From sequence record PQ438393.1: DNA of 64,000 nt; one strand, written 5' to 3'. This DNA comes from Escherichia phage vB_Eco_J-01. Shown here piece after piece: positions 32,163-33,517 of this stretch (positions are counted from its first letter, which is position 1; every line of letters begins with the position of its first letter). Made by a program: the position numbers and the translations under genes. The notes below the pieces were generated by a model. That model searched no databases. It was not told the DNA's origin and saw only the letters and a program-made list of their open reading frames with translations.

Positions 32163-32717
32163 ATGGGTTTTGATGATATGTTATTATATGAGGAGGCTTG
32201 TGTGAAAGAAGCTATGGCTTTACCAGTTTTATCTATTGATATTACAACAGTAGACACTTTTTCAGATTGTGAAACGTGTGGATCGTATTCATCTATTGTA
32301 CATGAAGTCTGTGGGGATTTAGGCACTTACGAAGATGGAGATTATGCAAGTTGTTTAGGTGATAATCAAGATGGTGAAGTGGCAAATGTTGCAAACTGGA
32401 TTGTTTCTAAGTTAAAAGAAAGAAATCGTCCGTTCCCTAATCTTCTTACACCAGAAGCTATGCTTAAAGCTGAAGAAGAGATGTATGATTATGGTGATAA
32501 AGTAGCTCATGATTATAATGATCCTAATTATAAAAAATTGAGTGATAAGTATTGGGAACTAGCTAATGCTTATGATAAATACTATTCTACAGAAAACATT
32601 GTTAAATTGTTTTTAGATTTTGGAGTAGAAATTAATTGGGACTTCGAAGAGGAAGAGCGTTACGACGCATCTTCTTGGGATGATGATTACGAAGAGGATA
32701 TTGAATGCGAAGAGTAA
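32163..32717 (+). CDS. hypothetical highly acidic protein
   Basis: ORF track 32148..32717; ATG 32163 after GGAGG. Confidence 0.5.
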   Translation: MGFDDMLLYEEACVKEAMALPVLSIDITTVDTFSDCETCGSYSSIVHEVCGDLGTYEDGDYASCLGDNQDGEVANVANWIVSKLKERNRPFPNLLTPEAMLKAEEEMYDYGDKVAHDYNDPNYKKLSDKYWELANAYDKYYSTENIVKLFLDFGVEINWDFEEEERYDASSWDDDYEEDIECEE

Positions 32718-33517
32718 TTTTTGTTAGTGGCGCAGGTTTAAGTGCAGACAGTGGGATTCGAACGTTCCGAACAGACACAGATAGTGGTCGTGCCTTGTGG
32801 GAAGAATATGATTTAGAAGAGGTCTGCGATATTGGAGCTTTCCAAGCAGGTTATCGTGTGAGAACATCTCCAGATCTTCCAGTGGTCGGTGGTGTAGACG
32901 AGAACGGTATGGACTTGTATGCCAAAACACACGAGTTTTATAACAAAAGACGTGTTGAGCTTAAAGATGTACAACCTAATGCTGCACATATTCAAATAGC
33001 AAAGTGGTTTAAGGAATATCCTAACCAAGTAGTAAACTTGACAACAAACGTCGATGATCTACTAGAGCGAGCAGGTGTAGACAGGGATTCTGTTATTCAC
33101 GTGCACGGATATCTTCCTGAAGTAGTTTACCGTATGCATCCTGGAGATTACAAAACACTGGTAGATATTGGTTACAACAGTATAAACATTGATGATTATA
33201 ACTGGGTGAAGCCTAATGTTGTGTTTTTTGGTGAGGCTGCACCTTTGTATGCAGATATGGCTCACTTGTTTGATACTTTGACCATGCAAGATTTGGTTGT
33301 TGTGGTGGGATGTTCAAACCAAGTTATCAATTTTAATTGGGAATTATTCCCTGCACTTAGTATGGGTACAAAAATGATTGTTATTAACCCAGGAATTAAT
33401 TACGAAGAAACTCTTCTTTACGAAGATAGAGGAGTCTTTGTTTATCGAGAAAAGGCCGCAGATGCTTTTAGCAATCCTGCTTTCATAAAAATGATAGAAG
33501 ATCATTTGACTAAATAA
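32705..33517 (+). CDS. Sir2-family protein (NAD-binding)
   Basis: GAGLSADSGIRTFR NAD-binding motif; HVHG catalytic-His block; no CxxC zinc module seen. Confidence 0.7.
   Translation: MRRVIFVSGAGLSADSGIRTFRTDTDSGRALWEEYDLEEVCDIGAFQAGYRVRTSPDLPVVGGVDENGMDLYAKTHEFYNKRRVELKDVQPNAAHIQIAKWFKEYPNQVVNLTTNVDDLLERAGVDRDSVIHVHGYLPEVVYRMHPGDYKTLVDIGYNSINIDDYNWVKPNVVFFGEAAPLYADMAHLFDTLTMQDLVVVVGCSNQVINFNWELFPALSMGTKMIVINPGINYEETLLYEDRGVFVYREKAADAFSNPAFIKMIEDHLTK

Follow-up and report, generated by a model that had tools for sequence, protein, structure and literature searches.

The locus studied here encodes a Sir2-like protein without a zinc ribbon directly behind a highly acidic protein, raising the question of what reaction such a sirtuin performs for a phage and whether its neighbour takes part. 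The window, a 64,000-nucleotide stretch of Escherichia phage vB_Eco_J-01, is DNA of a phi92-like E. coli myovirus (Justusliebigvirus), in which the acidic-protein gene is the orthologue of Phi92_gp039 and the Sir2 gene that of Phi92_gp038. The label 'Sir2-like' for gp038 is already present in many phage records. The features of the locus are as follows:

31500..32108, + strand, upstream gene, 202 aa, phrog_8514, in a conserved four-gene block (phrog match, synteny)
32080..32109, + strand, sigma-70-type promoter of perfect consensus, TTGACA-18-TATAAT with TG before the -10 box (score 12/12)
32125..32145, + strand, G+C-rich hairpin followed by a T-run, between promoter and acidic gene (terminator scan)
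32163..32717, + strand, acidic-protein gene, 184 aa (ORF list, phrog_9509)
32694..32698, + strand, GAGGA Shine-Dalgarno sequence for Sir2 within the acidic ORF (sequence reading; conserved in relatives)
32705..33517, + strand, zinc-free sirtuin gene, 270 aa (PF02146, phrog_2162, AlphaFold model, fold search)
33525..33543, + strand, terminator-like hairpin immediately 3' of Sir2 (terminator scan; annotated terminator in phage Paula)
33562..33819, + strand, downstream gene, 85 aa, phrog_15991, closing the rightward block (phrog match, synteny)

The Sir2 identity proposed in the initial annotation was borne out. The 270 aa product matched PF02146 (E=1.3e-22, 81 bits, gathering score 24), the sole Pfam family matched, and phrog_2162 (E=3.6e-105), matches that put its assignment to SIR2 well outside anything expected by chance. 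Residues G9-R22 form the NAD-binding motif GAGLSADSGIRTFR and H132-G135 the HVHG block, both intact, and the absence of zinc cysteines noted from the initial reading was likewise found. The protein contains two cysteines (C41 and C203), none lies between HVHG and KPNVVFFGE, where CobB carries its four, and the Cys4 zinc site of the small domain is absent. A sequence search of solved structures placed E. coli CobB (1s5p) best, with E=1.3e-18, and SIRT5 next.

Structure prediction, suggested with the initial annotation, gave a classical sirtuin fold in the AlphaFold model (pLDDT 90.5, pTM 0.87), with the Rossmann domain and small beta-sheet domain by which that fold is recognised. The small domain was modelled as a three-stranded sheet (strands 135-143, 151-154 and 167-172, pLDDT ~95); it is present, and the metal ligands alone have been replaced. 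The best match in the fold search was again CobB 1s5p (E=7.5e-17, TM 0.85), and the best 50 PDB matches listed were classical sirtuins throughout (CobB, Sir2-Af1/Af2, SIRT5, SIRT2, Sir2Tm). The protein shares with CobB, SIRT5 and Sir2-Af1 the fold, the GAGxS, FR and HG motifs, the N/D of TQNID and the Y-x-x-R pair. It differs from CobB, to which it is ~27% identical, in the missing zinc cysteines, in a Thr for the Gln of the TQNID motif and in a 24-residue insertion at about residues 47-70. Orthology to housekeeping CobB with an intact zinc module was checked and found absent: the NCBIfam CobB models scored 86.6 bits against a cut-off of 320 (NF040867) and 106.6 bits against 243 (NF001753), and by these scores the protein is not a CobB orthologue. 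Motifs, profiles and model together show a predicted catalytically competent NAD-dependent sirtuin of a phage-specific, zinc-free branch derived from class III (CobB/SIRT5-like) sirtuins.

Homologues of this Sir2 were found in 989 of 50,697 phage records (~2%), among T5-like, rV5-like/Vequintavirus, Mydovirus, Stephanstirmvirinae, jumbo and Vibrio T4-like phages. Identity to the rV5-like, Mydovirus, T5-like and Phapecoctavirus members was 47-69%, with E-values down to 1e-126. Sixteen positions were conserved at 97% or more in 121 clade members, namely G9, A10, G11, S13, S16, F21, R22, N115 and D117 together with H134, G135, F174, F175, E177, Y79 and R82; the Y79/R82 pair is the SIRT5-type Y-x-x-R, which binds an anionic group, and in jumbo-phage members Leu replaces R82. 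The Gln of TQNID is Thr, Ala or Ser, and GTS is GCS or GSS, in every phage member aligned. Zinc ligands were absent in every member examined, and the segment that holds them in CobB contained at most one Cys across the clade, at column 168 in 29 of 121 sequences. By sequence, the clade is a phage-only branch of CobB-like sirtuins that has lost the zinc-binding cysteines, a loss reported in phage sirtuins by Skliros et al. 2016 (PMC5107563). The window protein has the zinc-free small domain and the TTNVDDL, GCSN and EEVC signatures in common with the members from KVP40, phiSt2, T5-like phages, rV5, Mydo and Serratia BF, but differs from them in that its gene lies outside the RNA-repair cassette, preceded by a consensus promoter of its own and by an acidic gene for a putative zinc-knuckle protein. 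No published experiments on this clade were found in the literature.

The two genes are closely spaced. The acidic ORF begins at an ATG preceded by GGAGGA, with an in-frame TTG further upstream at 32148, and its stop codon (32715-32717) lies 10 nt past the Sir2 ATG (32705), giving a 13-nt overlap, ATGCGAAGAGTAA. This overlap is 16 nt in Phapecoctavirus, and in the close relatives Paula, L008 and L009 a TAA seven codons earlier in the acidic ORF leaves an 11-nt gap before Sir2. What is conserved of the proposed translational coupling is thus the close spacing rather than the overlap. The promoter at 32080 overlaps the final codons and the stop codon of the upstream gene and is one of only three perfect matches in 64 kb, where 0.14 would be expected; Phapecoctavirus and other relatives retain it in the form TTGACA...TATAAT or TATAGT. 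The hairpin at 32125 resembles a terminator for transcripts arriving from upstream, and those that start at this promoter would carry it in their 5' leader (leader folding energy -16.2 kcal/mol, z = -1.2); its stem is kept in relatives with altered loops and stem bases. The acidic and Sir2 genes are bracketed by promoter, leader hairpin and terminator. A structured RNA scan of 29000-35000 gave just one match, sub-threshold, to rsmX, over a terminator. The other neighbours of Sir2 are small proteins without known function and a Dcm-type methylase.

The acidic character of the upstream protein was confirmed: its pI is 4.05, with 47 D+E against 13 K+R and a net charge of ~-34, the largest absolute net charge among 116 window ORFs and the fourth most acidic per residue. 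Its AlphaFold model (pLDDT 84.2) combines a helical bundle with a CxxC knuckle on a beta-hairpin and with an acidic tail that is disordered; the CxxC is modelled at the hairpin turn between strands 23-36 and 40-51. C36-x2-C39 and C64 are invariant in the family, and the L32 zinc ribbon was matched weakly (E=0.003, below cut-off). A C-terminal Cys182 was considered as a fourth zinc ligand and rejected, being missing by truncation in Paula, L008 and L009; its apparent conservation is an artefact, since the GAATGC that encodes it contains the Sir2 start codon. A search of 1.84 billion proteins gave eleven representatives at E<=0.001; three of these are long proteins that align over several short segments, likely for compositional reasons. 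On this search the acidic protein belongs to a narrow phage family, present in 136 phage records compared with 989 for Sir2.

Known gene contexts bear on the role of the sirtuin. In sister phages its home is an RNA-repair cassette, which the window phage retains whole:

4..5563, + strand, RNA-repair cassette (Pfam, synteny with Mydovirus BIS47 and Vequintavirus bov11CS3)
4-378, + strand, cREC (Pfam)
896-1447, + strand, calcineurin-like phosphoesterase (Pfam)
1449-2381, + strand, T4 Rnl1-like RNA ligase (Pfam)
2382-2786, + strand, P-loop kinase (Pfam)
3480-4643, + strand, ATP-dependent DNA ligase (Pfam)
4841-5563, + strand, MazG-like protein (Pfam)

Sir2 is linked to RNA-repair genes in Mydovirus, Vequintavirus and T5-like phages, which supports an RNA-repair role. 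Mydovirus BIS47 has the order phosphoesterase, Rnl1, cREC, kinase, small ORF, Sir2 and DNA ligase, and Vequintavirus the order Rnl1, cREC, Sir2 and MazG; in the T5-like TrudiRoth the third gene downstream of Sir2 encodes a HAD_SAK_2 'Swiss-army-knife RNA repair' phosphatase. Such gene-neighbourhood evidence is weak in phages because whole genomes are collinear within subfamilies, and in the window Sir2 lies ~27 kb downstream of the cassette, so that its local context gives no support to the role. Iyer et al. 2022 describe these RNA-repair gene contexts of the sister phages and predicted a KptA/Tpt1-like RNA-repair role for the clade (PMC9503650).

RNA (tRNA) repair is the most likely specific role that we infer for the phage Sir2. 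The fuller reading, in which the sirtuin is a functional analogue of KptA/Tpt1 and the acidic protein a mere co-expressed neighbour, is preferred tentatively, its chances being put somewhat below even. The 2'-phosphate at a healed or ligated RNA break, an anionic oxygen, would attack C1'' of NAD with release of nicotinamide, after which the conserved His134 would activate the ribose 2''-OH for resolution of the adduct; the two proposed steps would be those that a sirtuin carries out on acyl-lysine. In the lineage of the window phage the Sir2 gene would have departed from the cassette, to be expressed with the acidic, putative zinc-knuckle protein as a two-gene unit from its own consensus early promoter, and the acidic protein would have a separate role rather than that of an obligate subunit. 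The likeness to KptA/Tpt1 lies in chemistry and pathway, the NAD-dependent removal of a 2'-phosphate in RNA repair, which for the sirtuin is predicted only, and in the linkage in sister phages to RNA ligase, kinase and cyclic-phosphodiesterase genes; KptA itself belongs to the ADP-ribosyltransferase superfamily, with a fold unrelated to the sirtuin's and no sequence relationship. To our knowledge, the characterised PF02146 enzymes that contain the His are all lysine deacylases or weak ADP-ribosyltransferases, which counts against a Tpt1-like role, as do the retained peptide-binding FGE loop and the Leu at R82 in jumbo-phage members. The cassette's kinase, metallophosphoesterase and ligase could also heal breaks without any 2'-phosphate.

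A CobB-like protein lysine deacylase (deacetylase/desuccinylase), remodelling host or phage acylation during infection, is a rather unlikely but substantial alternative; such an enzyme would, for example, re-activate acetylated acetyl-CoA synthetase. The nearest relatives by sequence and fold (CobB, Sir2-Af1, SIRT5) point to it, as does the conservation of the catalytic His, of N and D within TxNxD, of the FGE loop and of the Y79/R82 pair typical of class III, and this function was proposed for the Vibrio-phage members by Skliros et al. 2016 (PMC5107563). It leaves unexplained, however, the recurrent link to RNA-end-processing genes in three phage lineages; the host already supplies CobB, the scores fall far under the CobB equivalog cut-offs, and the TQNID and GTS motifs are altered in every phage member aligned. 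The initial annotation had instead judged the protein closer to the Sir2 domains of defence systems than to classical deacetylases. That judgement was not supported, being opposed by PF02146 as the only Pfam match, by CobB as the best relative in both sequence and fold and by the presence of the small domain. A defence- or toxin-type NAD glycohydrolase or protein ADP-ribosyltransferase, serving host take-over or superinfection exclusion, is regarded as very unlikely. The defence NADases ThsA, DSR1/2, SIR2-HerA and SPARSA share with the window protein the NAD substrate and the absence of a zinc ribbon, sirtuin folds are capable of NADase or ADP-ribosyltransferase action, and KVP40-type members were first annotated with a role in NAD hydrolysis. 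Yet no SIR2_2 match was obtained in the Pfam search, the PADLOC defence models gave no credible match (best E=0.0066, 13.8 bits) and no defence Sir2 structure was among the best 50 PDB matches listed, so that membership of a defence system was rejected on the PADLOC and fold searches. The protein is a single domain of 270 aa that lacks a sensor or partner (SLOG, TIR, HerA or pAgo), whether fused to it or encoded next to it, the annotation of Bas60 shows no Macro gene within +/-20 kb of the locus, the catalytic His is kept where SirTM has Gln, and the carriers are strictly virulent phages, some also encoding NAD salvage. That the phage Sir2 counters an NAD-depleting defence is unlikely because a sirtuin consumes NAD.

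The remaining alternative concerns the acidic protein, which as a dedicated partner of the sirtuin could be its substrate or carrier, its regulator or inhibitor, or a zinc module supplied in trans; this is considered improbable. The acidic gene lies directly upstream of Sir2, overlapping it or separated by 11 nt, in every Stephanstirmvirinae locus examined despite divergence of the protein to 32-54% identity, the promoter and terminators are common to both genes, and the invariant C36-x2-C39 and C64 with the weak L32 match also speak for partnership. A precedent is SirTM with its operon-encoded acidic substrate GcvH-L (PMC8120803), where a sirtuin likewise stands beside a small acidic protein and a Macro gene completes the operon. 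SirTM, however, is a zinc-binding enzyme with Gln at the catalytic His position, and its gene is linked to those for Macro and lipoate ligase; the window Sir2 differs on each of these points. Against partnership, ~850 Sir2-bearing phage records have no acidic homologue at E<=0.001 and their Sir2 proteins are equally without zinc ligands; the acidic homologues of jumbo phages are not within 4 kb of Sir2; and the whole four-gene block is syntenic, so that adjacency may reflect genome collinearity alone. As the adjacency is seen only in Stephanstirmvirinae, the acidic protein is probably not an obligate partner. The more specific proposal that the Stephanstirmvirinae sirtuin and the acidic CxxC...C protein form an early-expressed two-component enzyme system, with the acidic protein as substrate/carrier or zinc-bearing trans regulator, is given quite a low probability; if true, it would give a sirtuin of classical type a partnership that is new.

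For the sirtuins of these phages, which are large and virulent and infect enterobacteria and vibrios, two published hypotheses compete: deacetylation of host proteins and RNA repair of the Tpt1 type. The preferred reading, RNA repair, would if true be a new reaction class for the sirtuin fold, and phages would be spending NAD on RNA repair where NAD is a battleground of defence and counter-defence. The clade demonstrates that the sirtuin small domain can dispense with zinc. What the present locus contributes is that the Sir2 gene can leave the RNA-repair cassette and that an acidic cysteine-knuckle protein is a candidate partner; it otherwise adds little.

In phage Bas60 the acidic protein and the counterpart of the window ORF at 26568-27140 are both labelled 'putative aminoacyl-tRNA synthetase', a label based on a PhetRS_B1 match below threshold (E=0.029, 15 bits, cut-off 26.8). 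The two were considered as paralogues and this was rejected, there being no similarity between them; no paralogues of the acidic or flanking genes were found elsewhere in the window. The neighbourhood of the acidic homologues in jumbo phages includes acyl carrier protein, DUF5856 and thymidine kinase genes.

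The window derives from a phi92-like Escherichia coli myovirus of the genus Justusliebigvirus, subfamily Stephanstirmvirinae, and the region 31500-33900 exhibited 97-98% DNA identity to vB-Eco-KMB37, ALITA, Paula, PaulScherrer (Bas60) and others. The initial annotation had described a Sir2-like protein closely preceded by an acidic protein, and both ORFs were confirmed together with the motifs and the close spacing:

32163-32717, + strand, acidic ORF, 184 aa, counterpart of Phi92_gp039 (hypothetical protein)
32705-33517, + strand, Sir2 ORF, 270 aa, counterpart of Phi92_gp038 (labelled 'putative Sir2-like transferase')

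Residues 9-22 of Sir2 are GAGLSADSGIRTFR and residues 132-135 are HVHG; the only cysteines are C41 and C203. The acidic protein has a pI of 4.05 and a net charge of approximately -34, the highest absolute charge among the 116 ORFs of the window. The Sir2 ATG lies 10 nt before the stop codon of the acidic ORF, within which a GAGGA ribosome-binding site is located. An earlier TAA in the acidic ORF of the nearest relatives leaves an 11-nt gap to Sir2 and no overlap; the overlap is 16 nt in Phapecoctavirus.

Sir2 matched the classical SIR2 family PF02146 (E=1.3e-22) and no second family in Pfam, and aligned over its full length with phrog_2162, 'Sir2 (NAD-dependent deacetylase)' (E=3.6e-105). PADLOC defence-system models yielded a noise-level match only. 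The nearest solved structure by sequence was E. coli CobB (1s5p, E=1.3e-18), then Sir2-Af and SIRT5. Structure prediction, suggested with the initial annotation, gave a confident AlphaFold2 model from 50 homologues (mean pLDDT 90.5, pTM 0.87), in which the small domain is retained as three strands at residues 135-172 (pLDDT ~95). CobB was again the top match in a fold search (E=7.5e-17, TM 0.85 on target), followed by Sir2-Af1, SIRT5, Sir2-Af2, SIRT2 and Sir2Tm; all of the best 50 PDB matches listed were classical deacylase sirtuins and no defence Sir2 was among them. The proposal that absence of CxxC pairs marks a defence-like Sir2 is therefore not borne out. The four small-domain cysteines of CobB are replaced, the only change of that kind there, and NCBIfam CobB models scored 87-107 bits against cut-offs of 243-320, so that neither CobB orthology nor an intact zinc module, which would have spoken for a housekeeping deacetylase, was found. 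Judged by these scores, Sir2 is not a CobB orthologue. The protein possesses an intact NAD-binding and catalytic sirtuin core in a two-domain classical fold devoid of zinc ligands.

A search of 5.8 billion proteins yielded 1162 homologues, the best 120 of them at 54% identity or above, almost entirely on phage genomes or phage-like contigs. By tblastn the gene was present in 989 of 50,697 phage records, the carriers including Stephanstirmvirinae, Vequintavirus (rV5-like), Mydovirus, T5-like Demerecviridae, the jumbo Eneladusvirus and Asteriusvirus and the Vibrio Schizotequatrovirus. Zinc ligands were missing from every clade member examined, distant jumbo and Vibrio members likewise, with at most one small-domain Cys per sequence in 121 aligned clade sequences. 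Classical features retained in aligned members comprise the glycine-rich NAD-binding loop, F21-R22, N115, D117 and H134-G135, and in most the FGE loop. Conservation of the class III pair Y79-x-x-R82 reaches at least 97% within the core clade; jumbo-phage members carry Leu at position 82. Specific to the clade are replacement of the Gln of TQNID by Thr, Ala or Ser in all aligned members and a conserved [ED]-[VI]-C, which is EEVC in the core clade. GCSN is limited to the core clade, with GSS in jumbo and Vibrio members.

As a description the finding holds; its status is ordinary, the Sir2 gene being annotated already in many phage genomes. In 2016 Skliros et al. [quoted passage not shown] What this analysis adds is that the defence-like reading is clearly rejected, that zinc ligands are lost in every examined member across all the phage groups covered, that Sir2 has moved away from an RNA-repair cassette in Stephanstirmvirinae, and that its acidic neighbour is characterised as a narrow cysteine-knuckle family.

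The published gene contexts were examined afresh. In Mydovirus BIS47 a phosphoesterase gene is followed in turn by Rnl1-like RNA ligase, cREC, P-loop kinase, a 74-aa ORF, Sir2 and DNA ligase. A Vequintavirus has Rnl1, cREC, Sir2 and MazG-like genes, with kinase and phosphoesterase alongside on the opposite strand, and in T5-like TrudiRoth Sir2 is followed, three genes further downstream, by a HAD_SAK_2 'Swiss Army Knife RNA repair' phosphatase. The whole cassette, syntenic with the Sir2-bearing cassettes of Mydovirus and Vequintavirus, occupies the far left end of the window (4-5563), with Sir2 missing from it:

4-378, cREC (PF20274)
896-1447, calcineurin-like phosphoesterase
1449-2381, T4 Rnl1-like RNA ligase
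2382-2786, P-loop kinase
2796-3116 and 3120-3344, two small acidic ORFs (106 and 74 aa) between kinase and DNA ligase
3480-4643, ATP-dependent DNA ligase
4841-5563, MazG-like protein

The two small ORFs, third and second respectively in acidity per residue within the window, fill the slot held by Sir2 in Mydovirus; their products exhibited no similarity to the acidic protein. Sir2 lies approximately 27 kb downstream of the cassette on the same strand, and has therefore left it in Stephanstirmvirinae. It now forms part of a four-gene block (202-aa unknown, acidic protein, Sir2, 85-aa unknown) shared by all the loci examined from Justusliebigvirus, Phapecoctavirus and relatives.

KptA-like removal of RNA 2'-phosphates was predicted by Iyer et al. 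(2022, PMC9503650) from linkage to RNA ligase, cREC, kinase, MazG, calcineurin-like, HAD, 2H and Nudix genes. A KptA/Tpt1-like RNA 2'-phosphotransferase is likewise our leading candidate, a tentative one, because the linkage to genes of RNA-end healing and ligation recurs in three independent phage lineages and because the sirtuin mechanism maps onto the Tpt1 reaction. Sir2 would cleave nicotinamide off NAD and pass ADP-ribose to a nucleophile, an anionic oxygen positioned close to Y79 and R82; the two sirtuin steps, attack on C1'' and then attack by the 2''-OH activated by His, would correspond exactly to those of Tpt1. Against this role, the local cassette linkage is lost in this phage, and kinase, metallophosphoesterase and ligase could mend RNA by a route that passes through no 2'-phosphate. 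Deacylation of lysines in host or phage proteins ranks second as a somewhat less probable role; Skliros et al. (2016, PMC5107563) proposed that the Vibrio-phage members deacetylate host acetyl-CoA synthetase. An NADase or protein ADP-ribosyltransferase role comes last and appears improbable. Searches of the literature revealed no clade member that had been tested biochemically or genetically.

The surroundings of Sir2 were also inspected in the jumbo Yersinia phage fHe-Yen9-04 (locus L015, 1-1417 and 6046-7500). A gene for nicotinamide phosphoribosyltransferase, which salvages NAD from the sirtuin by-product nicotinamide, lies 2.5 kb upstream and a long PhoH-like ATPase gene 1.3 kb downstream; E. 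coli jumbo phage JNE01 and T5-like TrudiRoth also have a PhoH-like gene close to Sir2.

The AlphaFold2 model of the acidic protein (pLDDT 84.2, pTM 0.72) indicates a genuine, folded protein, in which an N-terminal helix precedes a three-stranded sheet (23-36, 40-51, 54-58), followed by four helices, a last strand (155-165) and an acidic tail that is disordered (169-184). C36, E37, C39, G40, G59, A62 and C64 are invariant in the family, and the CxxC is modelled at a beta-hairpin turn with the geometry of a zinc knuckle; the match to the L32 zinc ribbon was sub-threshold (E=0.003). No structure of known function, solved or predicted, resembled it. Among 1.84 billion representatives, an exhaustive HMMER scan retrieved 11 sequences at E<=0.001; three of these are long proteins aligned in several short stretches and probably compositional. 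An indexed search gave five. By tblastn the family occurred in 136 phage records, comprising Stephanstirmvirinae and weak matches in jumbo Serratia/Erwinia phages. The homologues of Serratia phage BF and two 371-kb metagenomic jumbo phages are not near Sir2 and have uninformative neighbours. Approximately 850 Sir2-bearing phage records, their sirtuins also zinc-free, yielded no acidic homologue at E<=0.001; the acidic protein is therefore neither an obligate subunit nor a general stand-in for the missing zinc module. A partnership confined to this lineage has a precedent in the SirTM sirtuin, whose substrate is the acidic GcvH-L of the same operon, much as the acidic protein here adjoins Sir2, and we consider it unlikely. 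The protein represents a narrow cysteine-knuckle family, with a putative link to Sir2 that is lineage-specific. An apparently conserved C-terminal 'E-C' was discounted, being GAATGC read across the Sir2 start codon and lost in close relatives through the earlier stop. The Bas60 label 'putative aminoacyl-tRNA synthetase' was traced to a sub-threshold Pfam PhetRS_B1 match; the product of 26568-27140 bears the same label, yet the two are unrelated.

The acidic gene and Sir2 form a putative unit carrying early-type expression signals:

32080-32109, promoter TTGACA-18-TATAAT, perfect sigma-70 consensus, upstream of the acidic gene
32125-32145, terminator-like hairpin with T-run, 5' side of the acidic gene
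33525-33543, terminator, 3' side of Sir2

Three perfect promoter matches were observed in 64 kb against 0.14 expected. Relatives keep promoter and hairpin, the latter with an altered loop and compensated stem changes; promoter conservation may be due in part to the coding sequence it overlaps. The hairpin starts approximately 15 nt past the promoter, whose transcripts would read through it or bear it as a 5' leader; the layout could represent attenuation, stabilisation or the boundary of a promoter-stem-loop cassette. The four-gene block closes the rightward transcription block, ahead of a bidirectional terminator with a 13-bp stem (33887-33916) at the point of transcription convergence, where GC skew flips from positive (to ~34000) to negative.

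The other two perfect TTGACA-N16-18-TATAAT matches (54193-54220 and 54905-54932, - strand) lie in a leftward block of small genes and are probably early promoters. An Rfam rsmX match at 29829-29914, which overlaps a terminator hairpin, is sub-threshold (27.6 bits against 56) and most likely due to chance. Records MG065639, MG065645, MG065650 and MG065652 are named 'Campylobacter phage' A150, A145, B15 and C11. A150 matches this phage and related coliphages (97% over the 2.4-kb region around Sir2, Sir2 itself 99%), the acidic protein of A145 is a 98% match to its coliphage counterpart, and B15 and C11 exhibit 36-48% protein identity to coliphage counterparts; the host names look doubtful. Four dTDP-rhamnose synthesis genes at 18050-21311, homologues of RmlB, RmlA, RmlC and RmlD by Bas60 annotation, adjoin glutaredoxin and ribonucleotide reductase genes; such a sugar-nucleotide pathway is unusual in a phage.
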